A DNA stretch of 64,000 nt from Escherichia coli. Its GTDB lineage: Bacteria > Pseudomonadota > Gammaproteobacteria > Enterobacterales > Enterobacteriaceae. Below the pieces are notes generated by a model. It made no database searches. It worked only from the letters and a program-made list of their open reading frames with translations, and had not been told where the DNA came from. Position numbers and translations under genes: made by a program. Position 1 is the first letter of the stretch. Every line of letters begins with the position of its first letter. The DNA lies in NCBI RefSeq assembly GCF_001677475.2, contig NZ_CP015229.1; one strand, 5' to 3'. Shown one piece after another: positions 11,981-45,257 of this stretch.

Positions 11981-13387
11981 ATGAAAAAATACCAGCAGCT
12001 TGCAGAACAATTACGCGAGCAGATTGCGTCGGGTATCTGGCAACCCGGCGATCGTTTGCCTTCGTTGCGTGACCAGGTGGCGCTTTCTGGCATGAGCTTT
12101 ATGACTGTCAGCCATGCCTATCAGTTGCTCGAAAGTCAGGGATATATTATCGCGCGACCGCAGTCGGGTTATTACGTTGCGCCACAGGCAATAAAAATGC
12201 CGAAAGCGCCAGTCATTCCAGTCACTCGAGATGAAGCAGTCGATATCAACACCTATATTTTTGATATGTTGCAGGCCAGTCGCGATCCGTCGGTCGTTCC
12301 GTTTGCCTCGGCCTTTCCCGACCCGCGACTTTTCCCCCTCCAACAACTCAACCGCTCGCTGGCGCAGGTAAGCAAAACCGCCACGGCGATGAGCGTGATT
12401 GAAAATTTACCGCCAGGAAACGCAGAACTGCGTCAGGCTATTGCTCGTCGCTATGCCTTACAGGGCATCACTATTTCTCCTGATGAAATTGTCATTACCG
12501 CCGGGGCGTTAGAGGCATTAAACCTCAGTTTACAAGCGGTAACGGAACCAGGCGATTGGGTGATAGTAGAGAATCCTTGTTTCTACGGCGCGTTGCAGGC
12601 GCTGGAGCGGTTACGGCTGAAGGCGTTATCGGTGGCGACGGACGTTAACGAAGGGATTGATCTCAAGGCGCTGGAACTGGCGTTGCAGGAGTATCCGGTG
12701 AAAGCGTGCTGGCTGATGACTAATAGCCAGAATCCACTCGGATTTACCTTGACGCCGCAGAAAAAAGCGAGGCTGGTAGCGTTGCTCAATCAGTACAACG
12801 TAACGCTGATTGAAGATGATGTTTACAGCGAACTTTATTTTGGACGGGAAAAACCGCTGCCTGCGAAAGCGTGGGATCGCCACGATGGCGTTTTGCATTG
12901 CTCTTCGTTTTCGAAATGTCTGGTGCCTGGTTTTCGTATTGGTTGGGTCGCCGCCGGAAAACATGCACGTAAAATTCAACGCTTGCAGTTGATGAGTACG
13001 CTTTCCACCAGCTCACCGATGCAGCTTGCGCTGGTGGATTACCTTTCCACGCGCCGATACGACGCCCATCTTCGTCGCCTGCGTCGCCAGCTTGCGGAAC
13101 GTAAACAACGTGCCTGGCAGGCACTGCTGCGTTATCTGCCTGCGGAAGTTAAAATTCATCATAATGACAGCGGTTATTTTCTCTGGCTGGAGCTCCCCGA
13201 GCCGTTAGATGCCGGCGAATTAAGCCTGGCGGCACTGACGCATCATATCAGTATTGCGCCGGGTAAAATGTTTTCTACCGGTGAAAACTGGTCACGTTTT
13301 TTTCGTTTTAATACCGCGTGGCAGTGGGGAGAACGTGAAGAACAGGCGGTAAAACAATTAGGCAAACTTATTCAAGAACGGCTGTAA
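11981..13387 (+). CDS. ydcR: MocR/GntR-family regulator with aminotransferase-like domain, YdcR
   Basis: 468 aa; N-terminal wHTH and large PLP-fold C-terminal domain. Confidence 0.88.
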   Translation: MKKYQQLAEQLREQIASGIWQPGDRLPSLRDQVALSGMSFMTVSHAYQLLESQGYIIARPQSGYYVAPQAIKMPKAPVIPVTRDEAVDINTYIFDMLQASRDPSVVPFASAFPDPRLFPLQQLNRSLAQVSKTATAMSVIENLPPGNAELRQAIARRYALQGITISPDEIVITAGALEALNLSLQAVTEPGDWVIVENPCFYGALQALERLRLKALSVATDVNEGIDLKALELALQEYPVKACWLMTNSQNPLGFTLTPQKKARLVALLNQYNVTLIEDDVYSELYFGREKPLPAKAWDRHDGVLHCSSFSKCLVPGFRIGWVAAGKHARKIQRLQLMSTLSTSSPMQLALVDYLSTRRYDAHLRRLRRQLAERKQRAWQALLRYLPAEVKIHHNDSGYFLWLELPEPLDAGELSLAALTHHISIAPGKMFSTGENWSRFFRFNTAWQWGEREEQAVKQLGKLIQERL

Positions 13388-13631
13388 TAGCGTTTAATTT
13401 AATTCCTCTTAGATTAGGTAATATGAATTTCGAATAGCAGTCATATTTCCTAACTCCTTGTCTATACTCCAGAAGATAACCTTACAGACGGCATAATGCG
13501 CGGTAGCTCACAACCTGATTAAATTTTCTCAGGGGCGAAGGTGTGCCTGCTAGCCGCCGTCTATGGTTAAACAAGGAGATATTTTTACGGCACGGCGGCT
13601 GAACAATTAATTACGACAGGAGTAAGACTTT

Positions 13632-14777
13632 ATGAGCAAGACATTTGCCCGCAGCAGCCTGTGTGCGCTCACCATGACAATAATGACCGCTCACGCCGCC
13701 GAACCGCCTACCAATTTAGATAAACCGGAAGGGCGACTGGATATTATCGCCTGGCCGGGATACATCGAACGCGGACAAACTGATAAACAATACGACTGGG
13801 TAACGCAGTTCGAAAAAGAGACAGGCTGCGCGGTGAATGTTAAAACCGCCGCGACTTCCGATGAAATGGTCAGTCTGATGGCCAAAGGGGGTTACGATCT
13901 GGTTACGGCATCCGGCGATGCCTCGCTGCGTTTGATTATGGGCAAACGCGTGCAGCCGATTAATACCGCCTTGATTCCCAACTGGAAAACGCTCGATCCG
14001 CGCGTGGTTAAAGGCGACTGGTTTAACGTTGGCGGCAAAGTTTACGGCACACCTTACCAATGGGGGCCGAACCTGCTGATGTACAACACTAAAACCTTCC
14101 CGACGCCGCCGGATAGCTGGCAAGTGGTTTTTGTTGAGCAAAATCTGCAGGACGGCAAGAGCAATAAAGGCCGCGTTCAGGCTTATGATGGCCCTATCTA
14201 CATTGCGGACGCTGCGTTGTTCGTTAAAGCCACTCAGCCGCAGTTGGGCATCAGCGATCCGTATCAACTCACCGAAGAACAGTATCAGGCGGTGCTGAAA
14301 GTGCTGCGCGATCAACATAGTTTGATCCATCGCTACTGGCATGACACTACCGTGCAAATGAGCGATTTCAAAAACGAGGGTGTGGTCGCTTCCAGTGCCT
14401 GGCCCTATCAGGCCAACGCCTTGAAAGCCGAAGGTCAGCCTGTCGCTACCGTTTTCCCGAAGGAGGGCGTTACCGGTTGGGCTGACACCACTATGCTACA
14501 TAGCGAAGCGAAACATCCGATTTGCGCCTACAAATGGATGAACTGGTCATTAACGCCAAAAGTGCAGGGCGATGTGGCGGCCTGGTTTGGTTCGTTACCA
14601 GTCGTGCCGGAAGGGTGTAAAGCCAGTTCGTTATTAGGCGAGAAAGGTTGTGAAACAAACGGTTTTAACTATTTCGATAAAATAGCCTTCTGGAAAACGC
14701 CTATAGCAGAAGGGGGCAAGTTTGTTCCCTACAGTCGCTGGACGCAGGATTACATTGCCATTATGGGCGGTCGCTAA
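13632..14777 (+). CDS. ydcS: ABC transporter periplasmic substrate-binding protein YdcS
   Basis: 381 aa with signal peptide; first gene of ydcSTUV-patD cluster. Confidence 0.9.
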   Translation: MSKTFARSSLCALTMTIMTAHAAEPPTNLDKPEGRLDIIAWPGYIERGQTDKQYDWVTQFEKETGCAVNVKTAATSDEMVSLMAKGGYDLVTASGDASLRLIMGKRVQPINTALIPNWKTLDPRVVKGDWFNVGGKVYGTPYQWGPNLLMYNTKTFPTPPDSWQVVFVEQNLQDGKSNKGRVQAYDGPIYIADAALFVKATQPQLGISDPYQLTEEQYQAVLKVLRDQHSLIHRYWHDTTVQMSDFKNEGVVASSAWPYQANALKAEGQPVATVFPKEGVTGWADTTMLHSEAKHPICAYKWMNWSLTPKVQGDVAAWFGSLPVVPEGCKASSLLGEKGCETNGFNYFDKIAFWKTPIAEGGKFVPYSRWTQDYIAIMGGR

Positions 14778-14794
14778 CTTCGCTGGGGTGCTTT

Positions 14795-15808
14795 ATGACG
14801 TACGCAGTGGAGTTTGACAACGTCTCGCGGTTGTACGGTGACGTGCGCGCAGTAGATGGCGTCAGTATTGCGATAAAAGATGGTGAGTTCTTCTCTATGC
14901 TGGGGCCGTCCGGCTCCGGCAAAACCACCTGCCTGCGCCTGATTGCTGGATTCGAACAGCTTTCCGGCGGGGCTATCTCTATCTTTGGTAAACCCGCCAG
15001 CAATCTGCCACCGTGGGAGCGGGATGTTAATACCGTTTTCCAGGACTATGCGCTGTTTCCCCATATGTCGATTCTCGATAACGTGGCCTACGGGTTAATG
15101 GTCAAAGGTGTGGAGAAAAAAAAGCGTTACATCATGGCGCAAGAGGCGCTGGAAAAAGTGGCGCTGGGTTTTGTTCAGCAACGTAAACCGTCACAACTTT
15201 CTGGTGGTCAGCGCCAGCGGGTTGCTATCGCCAGAGCATTAGTAAATGAACCGCGCGTATTATTGCTGGATGAACCACTCGGCGCGCTGGATCTCAAGTT
15301 GCGTGAGCAGATGCAGCTGGAACTGAAAAAGCTGCAACAGTCTCTCGGTATCACTTTTATCTTCGTTACCCACGATCAGGGCGAAGCGTTATCGATGTCC
15401 AATCGTGTGGCGGTTTTCAATAATGGACGCATTGAGCAGGTCGATTCCCCGCGCGATCTCTATATGCGCCCGCGCACGCCGTTTGTTGCCGGGTTCGTTG
15501 GTACATCGAATGTTTTTGATGGACTGATGGCAGAGAAACTTTGTGGCATGACGGGAAGCTTCGCCCTGCGACCGGAACATATCCGCCTCAACACCCCTGG
15601 TGAACTGCAGGCCAATGGCACGATCCAGGCGGTGCAATATCAGGGCGCGGCGACCCGTTTTGAACTGACACTGAGCGGCGGTGAAAAACTGCTGGTTAGT
15701 CAGGCCAATATGACGGGGGAAGAACTCCCCGCTACGCTTACTCCAGGGCAACAAGTGATGGTTTCCTGGGCGCGCGATGTGATGGTGCCACTGGTTGAGG
15801 AGAGGTGA
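14795..15808 (+). CDS. ydcT: ABC transporter ATP-binding protein YdcT
   Basis: 337 aa; Walker A GPSGSGKTT and ABC signature LSGGQRQR. Confidence 0.9.
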   Translation: MTYAVEFDNVSRLYGDVRAVDGVSIAIKDGEFFSMLGPSGSGKTTCLRLIAGFEQLSGGAISIFGKPASNLPPWERDVNTVFQDYALFPHMSILDNVAYGLMVKGVEKKKRYIMAQEALEKVALGFVQQRKPSQLSGGQRQRVAIARALVNEPRVLLLDEPLGALDLKLREQMQLELKKLQQSLGITFIFVTHDQGEALSMSNRVAVFNNGRIEQVDSPRDLYMRPRTPFVAGFVGTSNVFDGLMAEKLCGMTGSFALRPEHIRLNTPGELQANGTIQAVQYQGAATRFELTLSGGEKLLVSQANMTGEELPATLTPGQQVMVSWARDVMVPLVEER

Positions 15809-16750
15809 ATGGCGATGAACGTATTGCAATCACCTTCACGTCCGGGTGTTGGGAAAATATCAGGTTTTTTCTGGCGGAATCCGGGGCTGGGGCTGTTTTT
15901 GCTGCTGCTTGGCCCGCTAATGTGGTTTGGCATTGTCTATTTCGGCTCGCTGCTGACACTGTTATGGCAGGGATTTTATACCTTTGACGATTTCACCATG
16001 TCGGTAACGCCGGAACTGACGCTGGCGAATATCCGTGCGCTGTTTAATCCGGCGAATTACGACATCATTCTCCGCACGCTGACTATGGCTGTGGCAGTCA
16101 CTATCGCCAGCGCCATTCTGGCTTTTCCAATGGCGTGGTATATGGCGCGCTATACCAGCGGGAAAATGAAAGCGTTTTTTTATATTGCGGTAATGTTGCC
16201 GATGTGGGCGAGCTACATTGTTAAAGCCTATGCCTGGACGTTATTGCTGGCAAAAGATGGCGTGGCTCAGTGGTTTTTACAACATCTTGGGCTGGAACCA
16301 CTGCTGACTGCGTTCCTTACATTACCTGCGGTGGGCGGCAATACGCTGTCAACTTCCGGGCTGGGGCGCTTTCTGGTGTTTCTCTATATCTGGCTGCCGT
16401 TCATGATCCTGCCCGTGCAGGCGGCGCTTGAGCGTTTGCCGCCGTCATTGTTGCAGGCGTCAGCTGATCTCGGCGCACGTCCACGACAAACCTTTCGCTA
16501 TGTGGTGCTGCCGCTGGCGATCCCGGGTATTGCCGCTGGCTCTATCTTTACCTTCTCACTCACACTGGGCGATTTTATCGTCCCGCAGCTGGTTGGCCCG
16601 CCAGGATATTTTATCGGCAATATGGTTTATTCCCAGCAGGGGGCGATTGGCAATATGCCGATGGCGGCGGCATTCACCCTGGTGCCGATTGTTCTCATCG
16701 CACTGTACCTGGCGTTCGTGAAACGTCTGGGAGCGTTCGATGCACTCTGA
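15809..16750 (+). CDS. ydcU: ABC transporter permease YdcU
   Basis: 313 aa polytopic membrane protein; operon position. Confidence 0.88.
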
Positions 16751-17534
16751 ACGCGCACCGTTTTTCCTCAAACTGGCGGCCTGGGGCGGCGTTGTTTTCC
16801 TACATTTTCCCATCCTGATAATCGCCGCCTATGCGTTTAACACTGAAGATGCGGCGTTTAGTTTTCCACCGCAGGGCCTGACGCTGCGCTGGTTTAGCGT
16901 GGCAGCACAGCGTAGTGATATTCTTGATGCCGTGACACTGTCACTTAAAGTGGCGGCGCTGGCGACATTAATGGCGCTGGTGTTAGGGACGCTGGCAGCT
17001 GCCGCGCTGTGGCGACGAGACTTTTTCGGCAAAAACGCCATTTCGCTGTTACTGCTGCTGCCCATTGCGCTGCCGGGCATTGTCACTGGTCTGGCGTTAT
17101 TAACCGCCTTTAAAACCATCAATCTGGAGCCGGGATTTTTCACCATCGTGGTCGGTCATGCGACTTTTTGTGTAGTTGTGGTGTTTAACAATGTCATCGC
17201 CCGTTTTCGCCGCACCTCGTGGAGTCTGGTTGAGGCGTCAATGGATCTTGGGGCCAATGGCTGGCAAACCTTCCGCTACGTAGTGTTGCCGAATCTTAGT
17301 TCGGCGTTACTGGCAGGAGGAATGCTGGCGTTTGCCTTGTCGTTCGATGAAATCATCGTTACGACTTTTACGGCAGGTCATGAACGAACGTTACCGTTGT
17401 GGTTGCTCAATCAGCTTGGGCGACCGCGTGATGTACCGGTAACCAACGTGGTGGCACTGCTGGTTATGTTGGTAACAACCTTGCCGATCCTGGGGGCCTG
17501 GTGGCTAACCCGCGAAGGCGACAATGGTCAATAA
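16740..17534 (+). CDS. ydcV: ABC transporter permease YdcV
   Basis: 264 aa polytopic membrane protein; overlaps ydcU stop. Confidence 0.88.
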
Positions 17535-17555
17535 CCACTGATACAGGAATATGCT

Positions 17556-18980
17556 ATGCAACATAAGTTACTGATTAACGGAGAACTGGTCAGCGGCGAA
17601 GGGGAAAAACAGCCTGTCTATAATCCGGCAACGGGGGACGTTTTACTGGAGATTGCCGAGGCATCCGCAGAGCAGGTCGATGCTGCTGTGCGCGCGGCAG
17701 ATGCAGCATTTGCCGAATGGGGGCAAACCACGCCGAAAGTGCGTGCGGAATGCCTGCTGAAACTGGCTGATGTTATCGAAGAAAATGGTCAGGTTTTTGC
17801 CGAACTGGAGTCCCGTAATTGTGGCAAACCGCTGCATAGTGCGTTCAATGATGAAATTCCGGCGATTGTCGATGTCTTTCGCTTTTTCGCCGGAGCAGCT
17901 CGCTGCCTGCATGGTCTGGCGGCAGGTGAATATCTTGAAGGTCATACTTCGATGATCCGTCGCGATCCGTTGGGGGTCGTGGCTTCTATCGCACCGTGGA
18001 ATTATCCGCTGATGATGGCTGCGTGGAAACTGGCTCCGGCGCTGGCGGCAGGGAACTGCGTAGTGCTCAAACCATCAGAAATTACCCCGCTGACCGCGTT
18101 GAAGTTGGCAGAGCTGGCGAAAGATATCTTCCCGGCAGGCGTGATTAACGTACTGTTTGGCAGAGGCAAAACGGTGGGAGATCCGCTGACCGGACATCCC
18201 AAAGTGCGGATGGTGTCGCTGACGGGCTCTATCGCCACTGGCGAGCACATCATCAGCCATACCGCGCCGTCCATAAAGCGTACTCATATGGAACTTGGAG
18301 GCAAAGCGCCAGTGATAGTTTTTGATGATGCGGATATTGAAGCGGTGGTCGAAGGTGTACGTACTTTTGGCTATTACAATGCCGGACAGGATTGTACAGC
18401 GGCTTGTCGGATCTATGCGCAAAAAGCCATTTACGATACGCTGGTGGAAAAACTTGGTGCTGCAGTGGCAACGTTAAAATCGGGTGCACCGGATGACGAG
18501 TCTACGGAGCTTGGACCTTTAAGCTCGCTGGCGCATCTCGAACGCGTCAGCAAAGCGGTAGAAGAGGCGAAAGCGACAGGGCACATCAAAGTGATCACTG
18601 GCGGTGAAAAGCGCAAGGGTAATGGCTATTACTATGCGCCGACGCTACTGGCTGGCGCATTACAGGACGATGCCATCGTGCAAAAAGAGGTATTTGGTCC
18701 GGTAGTGAGTGTTACCCTCTTCGACAACGAAGAACAGGTGGTGAACTGGGCAAATGACAGCCAGTACGGACTTGCATCCTCGGTATGGACGAAAGATGTG
18801 GGCAGGGCGCATCGCGTCAGCTCGCGGCTGCAATATGGTTGTACCTGGGTCAATACCCATTTCATGCTGGTAAGTGAAATGCCGCACGGTGGGCAGAAAC
18901 TTTCTGGTTACGGCAAGGATATGTCACTTTATGGGCTGGAGGATTACACCGTCGTCCGCCACGTCATGGTTAAACATTAA
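17556..18980 (+). CDS. patD: Gamma-aminobutyraldehyde dehydrogenase (aldehyde dehydrogenase family)
   Basis: 474 aa; aldehyde dehydrogenase motifs ELGGKAP and catalytic cysteine region; K-12 synteny. Confidence 0.92.
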
Positions 18981-19076
18981 GGATAATATTGCAGATCGTA
19001 AGAGTATGAGAAGATCTTGCGTACTGTCAGAGAGTTGATTTCTCTGACAGTACGTGTTGCGTGCAAAATCACTACA

Positions 19077-36494: not shown

Positions 36495-37046
36495 ATGAAT
36501 CGCACATCCCTGATTAAATTAATTCATGTCGCCCGTCGTGATCTACAACTCGACGATGACACTTACCGCGCCTTTCTGGTGCAGTGCACAGGCAAGACCA
36601 GCTGCCGCGAGCTGTCCGTTGCACAACTGGAACGTGTGCTCGATGCCATGAAAGAGTGCGGTTTTAAAAAGCAGAAAAAACATCCCCGCCGTCGCTTTAA
36701 GGGGCATGTCACACCGCGCGAGAAGATTTATAAAATCTGGCAGCAGATGTTTCAGGATGGCTTTATCGCTGATGGCAGCGATGTCGCGCTGGACAAATAC
36801 GTTGCACGCCTGACGGCCAGACGTAATGGCGGTCAGGGGGTTTCCACGCTGGCCTGGTGTCACGGGGAATCGTTGCAGGTTGTGCTCGAAACGCTCAAGC
36901 AGTGGCACATGCGCTGCATCCGGGAAGCCTTTGCCCGACATGGTGTGCCGTTACCTGCAAGCCCATCCGGGCGGGAACTACGCGGATATGATGCACTGAC
37001 CAGTGCATATGCCCGCGCACGAAACAGCGGGAGAATTGCTGTATGA
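36495..37046 (+). CDS. gemA: GemA-family protein (Mu gp16-like)
   Basis: 183 aa from ATG 36495 with GGAGGT Shine-Dalgarno; position upstream of mor. Confidence 0.8.
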   Translation: MNRTSLIKLIHVARRDLQLDDDTYRAFLVQCTGKTSCRELSVAQLERVLDAMKECGFKKQKKHPRRRFKGHVTPREKIYKIWQQMFQDGFIADGSDVALDKYVARLTARRNGGQGVSTLAWCHGESLQVVLETLKQWHMRCIREAFARHGVPLPASPSGRELRGYDALTSAYARARNSGRIAV

Positions 37047-37492
37047 AACAGATGAAAGAGCAGGATTTATTCGAAGACCTTCGGGACGACAGCGTTCTGG
37101 AATATCTTCATGATTACCAGGAAAACACCGCTTATCCGGCGTTACTTTCTGAACTGAACGCACTGCTGCGTAAAGAGCTGGCCCGGATTGGCGCAGACCC
37201 TGCTCATTCCCTTGAGCTGGTTGTGGCGATTTGTCGCCATATCGGCGGGATGCAGGTTTATGTTCCGAGGGGGAATATTCTGGAGAATCTTGTCCGGGAT
37301 ATGCGTATCTGGCGTGATTTTAACGGTCATAATATTCCTGAACTGGTTCAGCGTTACGGGGTGACGTATAAAACCGTCTACAAGGCCATCAAACGGATGC
37401 GACGTCTGGAGCGCAATAAATACCAGCCGGATTTGTTTTACCCCTCCCCGAACCTGCCTCACCCCGTTCGTCGTCCACCACGACGCCCTTAA
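37043..37492 (+). CDS. mor: Mor transcription activator (Mor/C family)
   Basis: 149 aa; sequence closely matches recalled Mu Mor (DLFEDLRDDSVLEYL, VVAICRHIGGMQVYVPRG, YKAIKRMRRL). Confidence 0.88.
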   Translation: MKQMKEQDLFEDLRDDSVLEYLHDYQENTAYPALLSELNALLRKELARIGADPAHSLELVVAICRHIGGMQVYVPRGNILENLVRDMRIWRDFNGHNIPELVQRYGVTYKTVYKAIKRMRRLERNKYQPDLFYPSPNLPHPVRRPPRRP

Positions 37493-37500
37493 TCAATGAA

Positions 37501-37522
37501 GCCGGTAAATCCGGCTTTTTTT
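37501..37522 (+). terminator. Rho-independent terminator after mor
   Basis: GCCGG-TAAAT-CCGGC hairpin followed by a run of seven T. Confidence 0.6.
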
Positions 37523-37577
37523 ATGCCTCCGGCACCATGAAGCAGACCACGTTTAAATCTGCTTCACAGGTGCTTTT

Positions 37578-38174
37578 ATGGAAAATCAAAAATTCTCCCC
37601 GGCCTTTGAACATGCGCTGAATTTCATTCTGCGTCCCGATATCGAAGGCGTCTATGCCAATGACCCCACTGACCGTGGCGGTGAAACCAAATACGGCATT
37701 TCTGACCGCCGCGACGGTGTGACTGACGGCAAAACCGATGTCAACGGCGACGGCAAACCGGATACCCGCATCAGGGATTTAACCCGCGAACAGGTTGCTC
37801 AGATTTACTGGCGCGATTACTGGCTGCCTGCCGGATGTGACCAGTGGCCTGATGGCGTGGCGATGTTTGTGTTCGATGCGGCGGTTCAGCATGGCGTTAA
37901 AAAAGCTATCAGGATTTTGCAGGAAGCCGCGGATGTGGATGCTGACGGCATCATCGGCCCCCGTACCCGTAAGGCCGTGAGCCTGTCCACCCCGGACTGG
38001 CTGCTGGCCCGCTGCATTGTCCGTCGTTCCCGCTTTTATGCCGACATCATCAAGTCCAAACCCGCCCAGGGCAAATACCTGAACGGCTGGTTTAACCGCA
38101 TGGAAAAGCTGACCGACGCCTGTCTGGAAATCATCGATACCCCTCCAGGCATCATGTCCGCCACGCGGGGGTGA
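37578..38174 (+). CDS. Endolysin, glycoside hydrolase family 108 with C-terminal peptidoglycan-binding domain
   Basis: 198 aa; motif EGVYANDPTDRGGETKYGIS matches the GH108 family signature EGGY.NDP.DPGGETN.GI; DGIIGPRT in the C-terminal domain. Confidence 0.8.
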   Translation: MENQKFSPAFEHALNFILRPDIEGVYANDPTDRGGETKYGISDRRDGVTDGKTDVNGDGKPDTRIRDLTREQVAQIYWRDYWLPAGCDQWPDGVAMFVFDAAVQHGVKKAIRILQEAADVDADGIIGPRTRKAVSLSTPDWLLARCIVRRSRFYADIIKSKPAQGKYLNGWFNRMEKLTDACLEIIDTPPGIMSATRG

Positions 38175-38175
38175 T

Positions 38176-38427
38176 ATGGGCAAAGGCTGGGATGCCTCTC
38201 TGAAAGCCGGGCGGCGCGACCGCCTGCGTCAGGAGGTTCTGCACCGCATGGCCGGAGGTCCGCCCCCGAAACCGCTGGACTATACCGGCCATGACGGCAC
38301 ACACGCCAGCTACTACATGCGTGGCTGGAACTCCGTGGATACACGGGACATTTTCTGGCAGTGCCAGAAGTACAGGGAAAAATTCAATGTGGAAAAAGGT
38401 TATGAACAAAATTTTAAAACTGTGTGA
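38176..38427 (+). CDS. Hypothetical protein in lysis region
   Basis: 83 aa; starts 2 nt after the endolysin stop; overlaps the next ORF. Confidence 0.4.
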   Translation: MGKGWDASLKAGRRDRLRQEVLHRMAGGPPPKPLDYTGHDGTHASYYMRGWNSVDTRDIFWQCQKYREKFNVEKGYEQNFKTV

Positions 38428-38812
38428 CTGGCTGATTTGTTCCCGACTGATGAGAACCCCATGGCCGCTGGCCGGACTGACGCTCTGTATGTTCATCATC
38501 AGCATGTTATGTGGCTGGCGATCGTTCGTGTTGATGTTGTTGTCCTTTGCCGGGGTGGTGTTGTTTTCATACAGCGCAAGCCTCGGGAATGTGCCATTTC
38601 GCCTGCTGCCTGAGGTCCGTTACCGGGCTTTTGGTCGCCACATCATCGTGTGGTCATGGGTGGTCTGGGCGCTGGGATATTTCTGCTGCGTCTTCAGCAC
38701 GCTGATGATGATGTCACCGGCACACCCGGTGTTCTGGCTGTGTGGTGGCGGTTGCGGCGCTCTGCTCTGTCTTCAGCGTTATCTGTATGGAGGTTTCCCG
38801 TGGATCCGTTAA
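38402..38812 (+). CDS. Polytopic small membrane protein (holin-like or exclusion-like)
   Basis: 136 aa from ATG 38402; three to four hydrophobic helices; lysis-region context. Confidence 0.5.
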   Translation: MNKILKLCDWLICSRLMRTPWPLAGLTLCMFIISMLCGWRSFVLMLLSFAGVVLFSYSASLGNVPFRLLPEVRYRAFGRHIIVWSWVVWALGYFCCVFSTLMMMSPAHPVFWLCGGGCGALLCLQRYLYGGFPWIR

Positions 38813-39408
38813 CCCTTTCAGGCATCGCCTCCGTTCTGCTGAAAGCCGGGCCGGGGCTGATTCGTTCCGTCGGGCGCTGGTTTGGTGGCGGTACATCTGC
38901 CGCCGCTGACTCGGTGGCCGGTATGGTGGAAAGCGTCCGGGAAAGCCTGCCGGTGGCTGAACAGCAGCGCGTTCTGGAACAGAAGATGGCGATGTTACCA
39001 CCGGAACAACAGATACAACTGGAAACCCTGAAAATTCAGCTGCAACAACTGGAGGTGGAGCGGCAGAAGCTGGTGCTGGCTGACCAGCAGGCCGCACACC
39101 ACGAACAGCAGGAAACCATCCGCAATGGTGACAACGCCACGGACAGCTATGTGCGCCAGACGCGCCCGCTGCTGGCCCGCCTTTCCTGTTACAGCGGTCT
39201 GGCCTATGTGCTGTTGCTCTCCTGCGGCCAGATTGCCGGAGCCGTTGCCGGTGCCAGAGGTATCACGCTGCATATGCCAACACCGGACTGGGATATCACG
39301 CTGATGTTGCTTACCCCTGCGCTGGGCTATCTCGGCGTGCGAACCCTTGACGGCTTTGCCCGTTACAGCAAATCAAGCCGTCACAAAATGTCTGCGGGGC
39401 TGAAATGA
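38800..39408 (+). CDS. Lysis-associated membrane protein with coiled-coil N-terminus and C-terminal transmembrane segments
   Basis: About 202 aa if initiated at GTG 38800 (overlaps preceding stop); Q/L-rich heptad region then two hydrophobic helices; start uncertain (internal ATGs at 38920 and 38984). Confidence 0.45.
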   Translation: MDPLTLSGIASVLLKAGPGLIRSVGRWFGGGTSAAADSVAGMVESVRESLPVAEQQRVLEQKMAMLPPEQQIQLETLKIQLQQLEVERQKLVLADQQAAHHEQQETIRNGDNATDSYVRQTRPLLARLSCYSGLAYVLLLSCGQIAGAVAGARGITLHMPTPDWDITLMLLTPALGYLGVRTLDGFARYSKSSRHKMSAGLK

Positions 39409-39632
39409 CCGATGAAATCGACCGCATCAGTGAAGTGGTTCTGAACGAGCGTCAGTGCGTCGTTAAAGCCTGGCAGACGCGGACAAAAGAAGCGCCCCAC
39501 AGTCGGGGCTTCTGCAATGACTGCGGGAACGTTATTCCGGCACAGCGCCTTGCGGCGCTGCCGGATGTGGTGACCTGTATTGACTGCCAGCAGATGCGTG
39601 AGCGCAGGAGGAAGACATGTCCTGGGAAGTGA
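39405..39632 (+). CDS. TraR/DksA-family C4 zinc-finger protein
   Basis: 75 aa; CNDCGNVIP...CIDCQ four-cysteine motif characteristic of the DksA/TraR zinc finger. Confidence 0.7.
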   Translation: MTDEIDRISEVVLNERQCVVKAWQTRTKEAPHSRGFCNDCGNVIPAQRLAALPDVVTCIDCQQMRERRRKTCPGK

Positions 39633-39922
39633 TCCGGGCCAACTGGCCCATTTTATGGGCGCTGTTGATGACAGCGATAAATTTGCTTCAGCTGATTCTG
39701 GCAAAGACTTACGTCAAACGCGAAGAGTTTGATTCGCTGCGTTCCCGTGTGTCGGTGATGGAAGGTCTGGTGAATCAGCTCCCCGACCGCAATGAATTTC
39801 ACCGCCTGCAACTGGATATCAGCAACCTGCGGGGCGAAATCCGGGAACTGGGGCCATCCATACGCCAGGTTTCCCGCATCAGTGATTTGTTATTAGAGAA
39901 CGAGTTAAAGGTAAAAAATTAA
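39617..39922 (+). CDS. Membrane-anchored coiled-coil protein (i-spanin/Rz-like)
   Basis: 101 aa; N-terminal transmembrane helix (ILWALLMTAINLLQLILA) followed by coiled-coil-like sequence. Confidence 0.5.
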   Translation: MSWEVIRANWPILWALLMTAINLLQLILAKTYVKREEFDSLRSRVSVMEGLVNQLPDRNEFHRLQLDISNLRGEIRELGPSIRQVSRISDLLLENELKVKN

Positions 39923-40517: not shown

Positions 40518-40654
40518 AAAGAATCCGATAAGTAAAGCGTCCCGTGATGAACTCCGCCGTCTGGCGCACAACCTGACATGGCGGGAAATCCAGAGCGGCG
40601 CGCTGAAATCTGCATACGAAAGTTTACAGCGTAGTGAGCAACAGGAGGGCAAAC

Positions 40655-41236
40655 ATGGAAAATGAACAACGCCCCACCCGTGGCCGTCTTTCCAAAGTGG
40701 ATTTACTCCCGGACAGCATCCGGGAGCAGTTGCATCAGATGCTGCGGGAAAAGCGGCACACGCAGGAAGAAATCCGCGAAGCCATCAACGCCCTGATTGA
40801 CGAACACAACCTGCCGGAAGAGATGCAGTTAAGCCGGACGGGTTTAAACCGTTATGCCAGCCGCATGGAAAAAGTCGGGGCCAAAATCCGCGCCTCCCGC
40901 GAAATGGCCGAAGTCTGGGCGGCAAAGCTGGGTTCCGCGCCAACATCAGACGTCGGCAGGCTGCTGATGGAGTTTGTAAAAACGCTGGCCTTTGAAACGT
41001 CCATGTCGATGGCAGAAGACGACAAACCTGTAGCACCAAAGGCGCTGGGGCAACTGGCGCTGGTTGCCCAGCGTCTGGAAGCGGCAGCCATGACCAGCCA
41101 TAAACGCGAGAAAGCGATCCGCGATGCGTTTGCACAGGAGATGGCTGAGAAAACCGAAGAGCTGGTCAGAACGGGTGGTCTGTCAGGCGGTGCGGCTGAC
41201 ACCATCAAACGAGACATTCTGGGGATTAGCGCATGA
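40655..41236 (+). CDS. Mu gp27-like protein (putative terminase small subunit)
   Basis: 193 aa from ATG 40655 with AGGAGGG Shine-Dalgarno; directly upstream of the large terminase and overlapping its start. Confidence 0.6.
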   Translation: MENEQRPTRGRLSKVDLLPDSIREQLHQMLREKRHTQEEIREAINALIDEHNLPEEMQLSRTGLNRYASRMEKVGAKIRASREMAEVWAAKLGSAPTSDVGRLLMEFVKTLAFETSMSMAEDDKPVAPKALGQLALVAQRLEAAAMTSHKREKAIRDAFAQEMAEKTEELVRTGGLSGGAADTIKRDILGISA

Positions 41237-42768
41237 CACAGATGAACACGTTCAGTGAATCCGATGTTCTGCTGCCGTATCAGAAACGCTGGGTGGCGGA
41301 TGATTCAAAACTGAAAATCGCCGAGAAATCACGCCGTACCGGGTTAACCTGGGCGGAAGCGGCAGATGCAGCACTGACCGCATCACTGAAGAAGGAAAAC
41401 GGCGGGCGCGATCACTTTTATATCGGTTCGAATAAGGAGATGGCCCGCGAATTTATCGACGCCGTAGCGATGTGGGCGAAAGCGTTTAATGCGGCAGCGG
41501 AAGAAATCCGCGAGGAAGTGATCACCGACGAAGACATGGACATTCTGACGTTCGTCGTGTACTTCGCCAGCGGTTTTAAGGTCAAGGCGCTGTCCAGCAA
41601 TCCGGGCAACATTCGCGGGATGCAGGGGAATGTCACCATCGACGAAGCGGCGTTTCATGAAAAACTGGATGAGGTACTCAAGGCGGTCACACCACTGACC
41701 ACGTGGGGCGGTAAGGTTCGCCTTATCTCCACCCATGACGGCGTGGACAACCCGTTTAACCAGCTGATTCAGGAGAGCCGCGCAGGCAAAAAAGATTACC
41801 GTATTCACACCATCACGCTGGATGACGCCTGCAGTGACGGGCTGTACCGGCGTATCTGTCAGGTACGCGGCATGGAGTGGTCACCGGAGGCCGAGGCGGA
41901 ATGGAAAGAAGGCCTGCTGCGAAATACCGCCACCCGCGAAGACGCCCTGGAGGAATATTACTGCGTCCCGAAAAACGGCGGCGGCACGTATATCCCCCGC
42001 TCAATGCGTGAACGTGCAGCCCGTGGCACCGGAAAAGTGTTGCGCTTTACCGGCACACCGGAATTTAACGCACTGACGGAAAGCCAGCGCCGGGCAGATA
42101 TCCGGGAATGGCTGGAAACGGTGGTGCGCCCTGAACTGGAAAAACTCCCACAGAACCTGCGCCACTGTCTGGGGGAAGACTTTGCGCGTTCGGGTGACCT
42201 GACTGTGCTGGCCCCGGTGACGGTGAACGACGACACCACCCGCGAGGTGCCGTTCCTGGTTGAGCTTGCCAATGTGCCGTTTAAACAGCAGGAGCAGGTA
42301 CTGTTCTGGCTTTGCGATCGTCTGCCCCGTCGTGACGGCATCAAAATGGATGCGCGGGGGAATGGTCAGTATCTGGCAGAACAGGCGGCGGAGCGGTACG
42401 GCGACGAGGTGGAACAGGTGATGCTGTCCGTGGCGTTTTACCGTGAAAACATGCCCCGTTTCCGTGCGGCGTTTGAAGATGATGAGCTGATCCTTCCGAA
42501 GCATGAAGACGTGATCAATGACCTCGGGGCCATTCAGTTACTGCGTGGCGTTCCCGGCATTGATGATTCACGAACCAGAGGCAGCGACGGTCACAAACGT
42601 CACGGCGACGCCGCTGTGGCCATTTTCCTGGGCTTCCTTGCCAGTAAAGATGACTGCCACCGTTACGAACTGCACCGTCTGAACCGCCCGGCGAAACCGG
42701 AAGAACGCAACGCGCGCCGCCAGCTGAAGCTGACGCGCGGCCTGAAAAATGAGGGAGGTTTACTGTGA
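41233..42768 (+). CDS. Terminase large subunit (Mu gp28 family)
   Basis: 511 aa; position and sequence character. Confidence 0.88.
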   Translation: MTQMNTFSESDVLLPYQKRWVADDSKLKIAEKSRRTGLTWAEAADAALTASLKKENGGRDHFYIGSNKEMAREFIDAVAMWAKAFNAAAEEIREEVITDEDMDILTFVVYFASGFKVKALSSNPGNIRGMQGNVTIDEAAFHEKLDEVLKAVTPLTTWGGKVRLISTHDGVDNPFNQLIQESRAGKKDYRIHTITLDDACSDGLYRRICQVRGMEWSPEAEAEWKEGLLRNTATREDALEEYYCVPKNGGGTYIPRSMRERAARGTGKVLRFTGTPEFNALTESQRRADIREWLETVVRPELEKLPQNLRHCLGEDFARSGDLTVLAPVTVNDDTTREVPFLVELANVPFKQQEQVLFWLCDRLPRRDGIKMDARGNGQYLAEQAAERYGDEVEQVMLSVAFYRENMPRFRAAFEDDELILPKHEDVINDLGAIQLLRGVPGIDDSRTRGSDGHKRHGDAAVAIFLGFLASKDDCHRYELHRLNRPAKPEERNARRQLKLTRGLKNEGGLL

Positions 42769-44336
42769 ACCAGAAACAACAGGCCGGGGCCGCACGCCGT
42801 CTGCTGAACCCGGCAACCGGTGAGGAAGACACGCTGAAAAAAGAGGCGCTCAACGAAGCACAGGCCCGTCCGCGTCAGGCTGGCGTGCGTCCGGCCTCGC
42901 CGGGCATCAGCATCGCCTCCGGGCTGAATCCCGGCAGGCTGGCAGGCATTCTGCGCAATGCCGCCAACGGTATCACGCGTGATTTTTTTATCCTTGCCGA
43001 AGAGATGGAAGAACGCGATTTGCATTACGCCTCGGTGCTGCGCACCCGCAAGCTGACGGTGGCGGGTATTGAACCGGTGGTGGTGGCTGCCAGTGATGAC
43101 GATGCCGACGTACAGCTGGCGGATGCCATACGTGCGCTGATGGAAGCCCCGCAAATCCCCGAGCTGATGTTTGATTTGCTCGACGGGCTGGGAAAAGGCG
43201 TGGCGGTCTGTGAAATTTTGTGGAACACCCGCAACAACCACTGGGTGCCCCGTGATTATGAGTGGGTTGATCCCCGTTTTCTGAAAGCCGAAAAGCCCAC
43301 TCTGCGCCGGTTCCGCCTGCTGACTGACGATGAACCGGTGGATGGCGTACCGCTGACACCGGGAAAATTCATTGTTCACCAGCCGCGTCTGAAATCCGGT
43401 CTGCCGCTGCGTAACGGTCTGGCCCGTCTGGTGGCTGTGATGTATATGCTGAAATCCTTTACCGTGCGTGACTGGTGGGCATTTGCGGAAAAATTCGGCA
43501 TTCCGGTTACGGTGGGGAAATACGGTCCCAACGCCACGGAGGAGCAAATCCGCGTGCTGATTGATGCGATTGCCTCCATTGCCTCAGATGCCGGGTGTGC
43601 CATTCCGCAGTCCATGCAACTGGAGATGCAGGAAACCGCCAGCCGGAATAACGGCGGCGCGCTGTTCCGTGAAATGGCTGAATGGTGCGATGCGCAAATC
43701 AGTAAAGCCGTACTGGGGCAGACCATGACCACAGATAATGGCAGTTCGCGTTCACAGGCGGACGTGCACAATCAGGTGCGCATGGACATTGTGCGCTGGG
43801 ACGCGCGACAGCTGGCTAACACGCTGAATGAATATCTGGTGCGTCCCTACATCGAGGCCAACTACGGGCCACAGGCGCACTATCCCCGTGTTGTTCTGCG
43901 TATCAGTGAAGCCGAAGATCTGAAGGCGCTGACTGATGCTCTGGTGCCACTGATTGACCGGGGGATGCGGGTTCAGGAATCGGAGCTGCGGGATCGGTTC
44001 GGCCTGGCGGAACCGGACGAAGGGGCTGATGTTCTGCATCCGGTGTCTGCCGGAATGTCAGGTGATATGGCGATGAACCACGAGCGCGTCGCCCTGAACC
44101 GGGAACACCCCGACGAACTGGCACAGATGGTGGATGATGCCCTGCGTGACTGGCAGAAAACCGGCGAGGCGTTCACAAACCCGGTGCTGACACTGGCGCA
44201 GGAATGCGACAGTTTTGATGACTTTCTGAAACGCCTGCCTGAGCTTCAGGAAACGCTGAACGCGGACGACTTTGCCCTGCAACTGGCGGAGGTGTGCTTT
44301 AAGGCCCGTGCGCTGGGAGACACTGGTCATGCGTGA
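42765..44336 (+). CDS. Portal protein (Mu gp29 family)
   Basis: 523 aa; follows terminase with ATGA overlap. Confidence 0.88.
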   Translation: MNQKQQAGAARRLLNPATGEEDTLKKEALNEAQARPRQAGVRPASPGISIASGLNPGRLAGILRNAANGITRDFFILAEEMEERDLHYASVLRTRKLTVAGIEPVVVAASDDDADVQLADAIRALMEAPQIPELMFDLLDGLGKGVAVCEILWNTRNNHWVPRDYEWVDPRFLKAEKPTLRRFRLLTDDEPVDGVPLTPGKFIVHQPRLKSGLPLRNGLARLVAVMYMLKSFTVRDWWAFAEKFGIPVTVGKYGPNATEEQIRVLIDAIASIASDAGCAIPQSMQLEMQETASRNNGGALFREMAEWCDAQISKAVLGQTMTTDNGSSRSQADVHNQVRMDIVRWDARQLANTLNEYLVRPYIEANYGPQAHYPRVVLRISEAEDLKALTDALVPLIDRGMRVQESELRDRFGLAEPDEGADVLHPVSAGMSGDMAMNHERVALNREHPDELAQMVDDALRDWQKTGEAFTNPVLTLAQECDSFDDFLKRLPELQETLNADDFALQLAEVCFKARALGDTGHA

Positions 44337-45093: not shown

Positions 45094-45235
45094 CCCTCCC
45101 GCCGTAAATCCCCCTGAAACGCATCAGAAACGCGTTTTTTATTCTGATGGCGTGAATGTGCATTCTGACGTTTTTGAAGATGCTGTGGCGTTTTTGAAGG
45201 GGTTTTGAAGGGGGTATTTCCCCGTTTTCAGTGAA

Positions 45236-45257
45236 GCCGGTAAATCCGGCTTTTTTT
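45236..45257 (+). terminator. Rho-independent terminator after F; same sequence as the one after mor
   Basis: GCCGG-TAAAT-CCGGC plus seven T; 26 bp identical to 37497-37522. Confidence 0.6.

Follow-up and report, generated by a model that had tools for sequence, protein, structure and literature searches.

A short four-cysteine ORF lies in the late region of a Mu-like prophage in the Escherichia chromosome and raises two questions: does its product act on host transcription in the manner of TraR and DksA, and could it take over from the activator C, which this prophage lacks? Both ideas came from an earlier inspection of the DNA letters (the sequence-only reading). The window, which is the whole stretch of DNA analysed, was 64,000 nt long and contained the prophage, which starts at about 29.3 kb and runs past 63 kb. 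The prophage genes identified were those for repressor, transposases A and B, GemA, Mor, portal, F, I and T.

Identification of the gene

The ORF was found to be a real gene of 75 codons with an ATG start. The gene and the parts of it referred to below were as follows.

39405..39632, + strand: TraR-type gene, 75 codons
39411..39428, + strand: N-terminal tip motif D3-E4-I5-D6-R7-I8, counterpart of TraR DxxDxA, here DxxDxI
39513..39524, + strand: first CxxC of the zinc ribbon, C37/C40, present in 100/100 family members at the positions of TraR C37/C40
39546..39548, + strand: codon of R48, equivalent of TraR R48, invariant (100/100)
39576..39587, + strand: second CxxC, C58/C61, cysteines invariant, followed by the C-terminal helix with Q62, E66, R67 and K70

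The encoded protein (75 aa) was MTDEIDRISEVVLNERQCVVKAWQTRTKEAPHSRGFCNDCGNVIPAQRLAALPDVVTCIDCQQMRERRRKTCPGK. The motif CNDCGNVIP...CIDCQ, quoted in the sequence-only reading as the four-cysteine signature, was confirmed at C37/C40 and C58/C61 with a CxxC-17-CxxC spacing. No hydrophobic segment was found in the 75-aa protein, which is soluble. The start codon overlapped the stop codon of the upstream ORF (ATGA at 39405-39408), and the 3' end overlapped the following DUF2730 gene by 16 nt, with the AGGAGG ribosome-binding site of the DUF2730 gene (39606-39611) placed inside the TraR-type coding sequence.

Just past the TraR-type stop codon, a terminator-like hairpin with a weak T-run was seen at 39636-39649. 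Sites of this kind numbered 12 against 7.2 expected, and the hairpin is likely due to chance.

Homology and structure prediction

The 75-aa protein matched, far beyond chance, Pfam PF01258 zf-dskA_traR (E 6.5e-11) with 42.5 bits against a gathering cut-off of 24.9, and PHROG 54 'DksA-like zinc-finger protein' over residues 1-73 (E 2.8e-19). With NCBIfam TIGR02419 (phage/conjugal plasmid C-4 type zinc finger protein, TraR family), residues 3-66 aligned to model positions 1-64 of 64 (E 6.8e-16) at 58.6 bits, 1.1 bits short of the curated cut-off of 59.7. The F-TraR equivalog model was far from reached (30.4 vs 108 bits), and the protein, of only 75 aa, also fell well below the models for DksA proper (NF008045, 29.7 vs 289 bits; TIGR02420, 28.9 vs 115.5). 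The best PDB sequence matches were TraR and DksA, and no Mor or HTH Pfam match was found in the ORF.

A word-indexed homologue search reached close Escherichia relatives only, and the depth of the family was obtained from an exhaustive HMMER search of 1.84 billion representatives, which produced 429 relatives at E ≤ 0.001. Among the best 150 of the 429, the relatives were mostly 65-80 aa long and aligned from residue 1-3 on. The family alignment of 100 relatives from the HMMER search (A1) was used as a profile, and its positions 1-72 aligned with residues 1-71 of F TraR (E 7.5e-18), and M-x-D-E-x-D at the two N-termini was in register. Aligned end to end, the protein and F TraR were 35% identical, which falls inside the 32-49% range of identity to TraR of five phage homologues that were shown to bind RNA polymerase (RNAP) (PMC9239242).

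The AlphaFold2 (AF2) model of the protein, built with A1, had moderate confidence (mean pLDDT 72.7) and showed helices at residues 4-27 and 59-71 and, between them, a zinc ribbon that includes a short helix (46-51). The size of the protein and this layout of helix, zinc ribbon and helix are those of TraR, where the three elements span residues 2-27, 28-57 and 58-73 (PMC6970531). A Foldseek search against the PDB gave DksA/TraR-family chains for all of the top 11 matches, including full-length TraR (6N57_M). The TM-scores to TraR were only about 0.5, as expected because the protein is small and elongated and was modelled free and not bound.

Overall, sequence, profile and predicted fold agree, and membership of the 75-aa protein in the DksA/TraR zinc-finger family, as the short TraR type, is therefore supported. 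This is the assignment made in the sequence-only reading, and both checks proposed there, homology (with PF01258 above its cut-off and TraR and DksA as the best PDB sequence matches) and structure prediction (with a DksA/TraR-like fold in the AF2 model), came out in its favour. The alternative that it had named, a conserved Mu structural-module protein of known other function, did not hold.

Escherichia coli DksA is longer, at 151 aa, has a coiled coil made of two helices and depends on ppGpp. DksA and the TraR-type protein have in common the C4 zinc ribbon with the helix that follows it, and the same secondary channel of RNAP is bound by DksA according to the family model. The TraR-type protein differs from DksA in having a single N-terminal helix in place of the two-helix coiled coil.

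Conservation of functional residues

F-plasmid TraR (73 aa; PDB 5W1S and 6N57; Gopalkrishnan et al. 2017, Chen et al. 2019) shares with the 75-aa protein the cysteines at 37, 40, 58 and 61, the residues I44, P45, R48, Q62, E66, R67 and K70, the N-terminus M-x-D-E-x-D with D3 and D6, and the helix, ribbon and helix architecture, which is predicted here. In A1, C37, C40, R48, C58 and C61 were invariant (100/100), and D3 (97%), D6 (98%), Q62 (92%), E66 (97%) and I44 (at least 90%) were highly conserved. In TraR, the DxxDxA tip with D3 and D6 is required for function (PMC9239242, PMC6970531), R48 contacts the β' rim helices (PMC9239242) and the C-terminal helix touches the β lobe/Si1 (PMC9239242, PMC6970531). 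Substitutions of D3 and D6 in lambda Orf73 resulted in less inhibition of rrnB P1 and a lower phage yield (PMC9239242).

The two proteins differ at position 43 (P in TraR, V here), at position 8 (A in TraR, I here) and at the β'Si3 interface (E46/R49/K50 in TraR, A46/L49/A50 here). With Ile at residue 8, the Ala of DxxDxA is missing; Ala was present in 77% of A1 and Ile in the Escherichia clade only. A46 and L49 are the majority residues of the family in A1, where the majority triplet as a whole reads A/L/A. The residues E46, R49 and K50 of TraR form the β'Si3 interface and contribute to activation, and about half of the activation was lost in TraR E46A, R49A and K50A (PMC6970531). Inhibition of rrnB P1 by TraR K50A was like that of the wild type, with E46A and R49A only mildly impaired (PMC6970531). 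Incomplete motifs have been proposed to lower the activity of P2 Orf82 and Gp34 (PMC9239242). It is a reasonable prediction from these comparisons that the 75-aa protein would be an inhibitor of short-lived open complexes and a weak activator, weak because A46/L49/A50 replace E46/R49/K50 of TraR.

Purifying selection on the gene was shown by five Escherichia prophage alleles with 76-97% protein identity, for which pairwise dN/dS was 0.06-0.46. Changes between the five alleles clustered in residues 17-34, and the tip, the ribbon and the C-terminal helix were conserved.

Gene neighbourhood in transposable phages

The neighbouring features of the TraR-type gene were as follows.

37043..37492, + strand: Mor orthologue (Pfam Mor, E 3.6e-30), presumed activator of the operon
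37499..37517, + strand: 19-bp dyad AAGCCGGTAAATCCGGCTT followed by a T-run, Pm-like, at the operon head between the Mor gene and the endolysin gene
37578..38174, + strand: endolysin with GH108 and PG_binding_3 domains (Pfam), first gene of the operon
38800..39408, + strand: membrane/coiled-coil protein of about 202 aa (PHROG 1544), start as in a relative's RefSeq entry
39617..39922, + strand: DUF2730 gene, Mu gp25 releasin family (Pfam PF10805, E 1.6e-29), with an N-terminal TM segment
40634-41236: gp27-like small terminase gene
41233-42768: large terminase
42765-44336: portal

The order of the region was GemA, Mor, the dyad with its T-run, GH108 endolysin, a gp18-like gene, a 136-aa multi-TM protein, the ~202-aa protein, the TraR-like gene, DUF2730, a gp26-like gene, a 99-aa ORF, gp27, large terminase and portal. 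Starts and stops abut or overlap from the endolysin through the portal gene. The TraR-type gene is located between lysis and packaging genes, as the sequence-only reading had placed it, with the endolysin (37578-38174) before it and the gp27-like, terminase and portal genes (40634-44336) after it. The ~202-aa protein had a hydrophobic segment at residues 133-152 and a weak match, below the cut-off, with GTA_holin_3TM, and it recurs as the neighbour in relatives.

The same gene order was found in 6/6 informative contigs encoding more distant family members. A scan of IMG/VR with a 12-sequence alignment produced 80 loci in 23 clusters at 70% identity. A DUF2730-type gene directly followed the TraR-like gene in 78/80 of these viral contigs (55 called by HMM, the rest by sequence and N-terminal TM segment), with its start at -41 to 0 nt from the TraR stop codon, and a gp27-type small terminase gene was present 560-1250 bp downstream at 76 of the 80 loci. 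This adjacency and synteny make the TraR-type gene a near-constant part of the late module in a broad group of transposable phages. Almost all representatives of the 23 Mu-like-phage clusters kept the D-x-x-D tip. In some same-slot copies, position 3 was K or E, or position 6 was E.

Genes of this type have been described at the same position, flanked by the endolysin and small-terminase genes, in the Burkholderia transposable phage KS10 (gp7, a dksA/traR zinc-finger gene, in 2008; PMC2628397) and in FluMu of Haemophilus influenzae, where HI1497 is listed (PMC3877243). Annotated copies were also found at this position in Mu-like phages of Vibrio (martha 12B12 VPCG_00028), Shewanella (MuM16-2 p23) and Pseudoalteromonas (HS6 gp35), all of the same family and directly upstream of DUF2730; these three were 26-36% identical to the TraR-type protein, and I8 was particular to the Escherichia clade.

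A role in the lysis module itself, in which the protein would time or license lysis together with the ~200-aa membrane protein and/or the DUF2730 releasin, with or without RNAP binding, is judged unlikely. The gene does belong to the lysis cassette, where it overlaps the preceding gene at ATGA and the following gene by 16 nt, the DUF2730-type gene came next in 78/80 viral contigs across 23 sequence clusters and in phages of Vibrio, Shewanella, Pseudoalteromonas and Klebsiella, and the TraR of phage VP882 has a dedicated partner, QisA (bioRxiv 10.64898/2026.07.27.740977). However, adjacency is weak evidence because the entire late region is syntenic. The protein is soluble and without a hydrophobic segment, and its conserved D3 and D6 are residues needed at the polymerase active site and not for binding, which points to an RNAP-directed activity. 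In addition, the Mu lysis study worked with separate clones of gene 22 and gene 25 and left gene 24 out (PMC9239132), and action of gp25 on gp22 without gp24 is therefore suggested.

Promoter, Mor orthologue and absence of C

The dyad at the operon head differed by 1 mismatch from the hairpin inside the annotated Mor-dependent middle promoter Pm of Mu. The gene I homologue (Mu-like_Pro) was directly preceded by an identical copy (45234-45252), with 0 copies expected by chance, and both copies together with 20-odd downstream bases aligned with the hairpin region of Mu Pm. At 39 loci the dyad was conserved on the + strand, where it immediately preceded the endolysin gene and lay about 1.9 kb upstream of the TraR-like gene. 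One lineage had an extra gene between the dyad and mor. In published work the Mor dyad has its centre at -43.5 (PMC4390567, PMC4287176), which agrees with the position of the hairpin to within a few bases. The dyad is a putative Mor site by its position in the annotated Pm and by its sequence conservation. No convincing terminator was found between the dyad and the TraR-like gene. With a conserved dyad at the operon head and no convincing terminator in between, the TraR-like gene is most likely transcribed from a Pm-type promoter along with the lysis and packaging genes.

The Mor orthologue was 63% identical to Mu Mor and 32% identical to Mu C. No second Mor/C-family paralogue was found in the window, where the ORF at 37043-37492 was the sole one of this kind; C is absent from the prophage. 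In Mu, the gene I promoter PI is C-dependent. The positions of the two Pm-like dyads of the prophage correspond to those of Plys and PI in Mu and point to a cascade of two tiers, with the late operons driven directly by the Mor orthologue.

The sequence-only reading had considered the TraR-type gene as possibly relevant to the missing C function. This link is not supported, and the gene does not replace the C activator: two Pm-like dyads and one Mor orthologue account for late transcription. TraR-family proteins act on RNAP without DNA binding (PMC9239242) and therefore cannot supply promoter specificity. The TraR-type protein was rejected as a C substitute on this ground and on the lack of conservation of the activation residues at A46/L49/A50.

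As a rival reading, the protein would be a co-activator standing in for Mu C by binding RNAP and stimulating the activator-dependent late promoters of the phage, which is considered very unlikely. It is consistent with the absence of C, and the 5 kb preceding the TraR-like gene contained at most one Mor/C-family ORF in each of the 80 TraR-bearing viral contigs (one in 64, none in 16). Mu, with both Mor and C, has in this slot gp24, which is without the TraR hallmarks, and some F promoters are activated by F TraR in vitro (PMC9239242). However, this contrast between Mor plus C and TraR is one phylogenetic split (Mu proper vs the rest), for which reason the co-activator is given such a low probability. 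With identical Pm-like dyads ahead of the endolysin operon and the gene I operon, the single Mor orthologue already suffices to explain late transcription. DNA binding is absent from TraR proteins, the β'Si3 activation residues are not conserved in the 75-aa protein, and lambda promoters were barely affected by lambda Orf73 (PMC9239242).

The corresponding gene of phage Mu

Mu gp24 (AAF01102, 64 aa, hypothetical, PHROG 3260) occupies the same slot immediately upstream of the gp25 releasin gene and has a C4 motif with CxxC-17-CxxC spacing identical to that of the TraR-type protein. Its AF2 model showed an N-terminal helix and ribbon like the TraR type but no C-terminal helix, and the top Foldseek match of the model was TraR (E 0.34). 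D3, D6, R48 and Q62, all present in the TraR-type protein, are lacking in Mu gp24. BLASTP of the TraR-type protein against Mu gp24 gave no alignment, and Pfam zf-dskA_traR had no match in Mu gp24. The hhalign comparison gave E 3.7e-4 but a probability of 36%, the family HMM scored 10.6-12.3 bits, which 2-5% of Cys-fixed shuffles reach, and the two proteins fell in separate PHROGs (54 for the TraR-type ORF, 3260 for Mu gp24), so that similarity to the gp24 family was not found. Mu gp24 was rejected as a clear homologue on BLASTP, Pfam, hhalign and shuffles and was kept as a positional analogue of unproven homology, possibly a TraR-type protein that has decayed.

The TraR-type protein of the prophage could likewise be a zinc ribbon that has drifted from RNAP regulation to another function or none, as Mu gp24 may have done, and this is held to be quite improbable. 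I8 in place of the motif Ala, the lost Si3-contact residues, the score just below the TIGR02419 cut-off and the same-slot copies with K/E at position 3 or E at position 6 would fit such drift. The purifying selection (dN/dS 0.06-0.46), the full set of invariant family residues and the full-length alignment with TraR, which takes in both helices, argue against it. Finally, an anti-phage defence role was rejected, as PADLOC gave no defence-system match for the TraR-type gene or its neighbours.

Proposed role

The explanation that fits best, and that is considered moderately probable, is that the 75-aa protein would be a TraR-type, ppGpp-independent regulator of host RNAP acting from the lysis-packaging operon. 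That it is a modulator of host transcription, in the words of the sequence-only reading, can reasonably be inferred from the characterised homologues (PMC9239242). The N-terminal helix would insert into the secondary channel of the host sigma-70 RNAP and bring D3 and D6 close to the active site. The β' rim helices would be contacted by R48 and the zinc ribbon, and the β lobe/Si1 by the C-terminal helix. If F TraR and lambda Orf73 are a guide, the protein would need neither ppGpp nor DNA binding for its action. Open complexes at rRNA and ribosomal-protein promoters would be destabilised, and polymerase and resources may thereby be freed for phage late gene expression. It would be expressed within the lysis-packaging operon behind the Pm-like, presumably Mor-dependent promoter, and membership in this Pm-headed operon would therefore place its action from the middle/late stage onward.

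The tested phage homologues (lambda Orf73, P2 Orf82, VHML Orf8, VP882 Orf61 and Xenorhabdus bovienii Gp34) come from gammaproteobacterial phages and are likewise short and comparably diverged from TraR (PMC9239242), and the mechanism is expected to be as for these, with RNAP binding and inhibition of rRNA and ribosomal-protein promoters. The genomic context is different. F TraR is encoded in a conjugative transfer operon and the TraR-type gene here in a phage late operon. Lambda Orf73, P2 Orf82, VHML Orf8 and VP882 Orf61, the four of known genomic context, are encoded in early or lysis-lysogeny regions (PMC9239242), whereas the gene here is in a presumably Mor-dependent lysis-packaging operon and translationally coupled to the DUF2730 gene. 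The characterised phage TraR homologues are early genes, unlike the middle/late action proposed here.

Against the RNAP regulator, a late inhibitor of host transcription has less time than the early lambda and P2 homologues. I8, the lost Si3 residues, the TIGR02419 shortfall, the moderate model confidence and the TM-scores of about 0.5 also count against it.

A joint reading of the family, which is tentative and rather doubtful, would be that across a wide clade of Mu-like transposable phages the late operon driven by Mor has a TraR-type channel binder among its core genes, translationally coupled to the releasin gene, for late shut-off of host transcription together with lysis and packaging, with a timing and a context unlike those of all characterised TraR homologues. 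Mu gp24 would then be a decayed remnant of the gene, lost or repurposed in the lineage where C was acquired.

Distribution and implications

The module was carried by 50 of 5,426 complete E. coli genomes. In strain KFu019, the protein is present in RefSeq as WP_042856712.1 (97% identical) under the name 'TraR/DksA C4-type zinc finger protein'. The TraR-type gene is thus already annotated, of a known kind and an ordinary member of its family, and only its conserved late-operon place beside the releasin gene is modestly new. The advance over the current annotation is slight: a near-constant late-operon gene next to the releasin gene, of a family whose characterised phage homologues are early.

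If the protein acts like TraR or lambda Orf73, Escherichia Mu-like prophages carry a small factor that rewires host RNAP without the stringent response. Such a factor could make bursts larger, and induction of the prophage would then have consequences for host physiology. The late-operon place of the gene offers a simple test case for the usefulness of TraR-type factors late in infection too.

Control of the late operons

The prophage was found to encode one Mor/C-family protein, an orthologue of the Mu middle transcription activator Mor with 63% identity to Mu Mor and 32% identity to the late activator C. No C paralogue was found anywhere in the 64-kb window. The elements identified around the late operons were as follows:

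37043-37492, Mor orthologue, the sole Mor/C-family gene of the window
37499-37517, 19-bp dyad AAGCCGGTAAATCCGGCTT with a T-run, upstream of the endolysin operon
45234-45252, exact second copy of the AAGCCGGTAAATCCGGCTT dyad with its T-run, ahead of the operon of gene I (Mu-like_Pro)
37539-37546 and 37558-37565, perfect 8-bp inverted repeat GAAGCAGA and TCTGCTTC with an 11-nt spacer

The dyad differed by one mismatch from the hairpin inside Pm, the Mor-dependent middle promoter of Mu, and the bases downstream also aligned. Because the two dyads match the Pm hairpin, the sequence suggests that both late operons are driven by the one Mor orthologue, and regulation would thus be a two-tier cascade without C. 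The inverted repeat (37539-37565) was placed after the Pm-like dyad and before the endolysin start codon. It may serve as an operator or form a hairpin in the 5'-UTR.

Arrangement of the lysis genes

Between the endolysin and TraR genes the following were identified:

38176-38427, 83-aa ORF immediately 3' of the endolysin gene
38402-39408, a 136-aa protein and an approximately 202-aa protein, both ahead of the TraR gene

The 83-aa ORF was assigned to phrog_2121 (E 9.5e-42) and had no Pfam match at E ≤ 0.001, while the ORFs of relatives in the same slot matched Phage_Mu_gp18 (PF26867). Since gene 18 of Mu sits in the middle operon ahead of C, the middle and late operons appear to be fused or rearranged in this prophage. 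The 136-aa protein had several hydrophobic segments. The approximately 202-aa protein (PHROG 1544) had one strong TM segment, a Gln/Glu-rich coiled-coil at its centre and a weak GTA_holin_3TM match under the cut-off. Both are candidate holin/spanin-like lysis proteins, which would partner the cytoplasmic GH108 endolysin and the DUF2730 protein.

Divergence and the TraR-type protein

Among 5,426 complete E. coli genomes, identity to the host flank (12000-19000; patD, ydcR-ydcU) did not exceed approximately 97.6%, and the best identity to the prophage module was approximately 96-97%. The source may be a divergent Escherichia lineage absent from those genomes. Codon 8 of the TraR gene (39426-39428) encoded Ile in the Escherichia clade and Val in the next relative, whereas this position is the Ala of the DxxDxA tip motif in 77% of the family and in TraR/DksA. 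Ile8 in place of Ala could lower or alter activity.

Mu itself carries a gene in the same slot, just ahead of the gp25 releasin gene:

AF083977 11524-11718 (3666-3860 of the Mu locus L002), Mu gene 24, product gp24 annotated as hypothetical

Mu gp24 has a CxxC-17-CxxC arrangement spaced as in TraR, and its N-terminus, MNEDQNRA, is reminiscent of MxDxxDRA. The best Foldseek match of its AF2 model was TraR (E 0.34), and sequence support for the relation was marginal. Mu gene 24 may be a decayed TraR-type gene.
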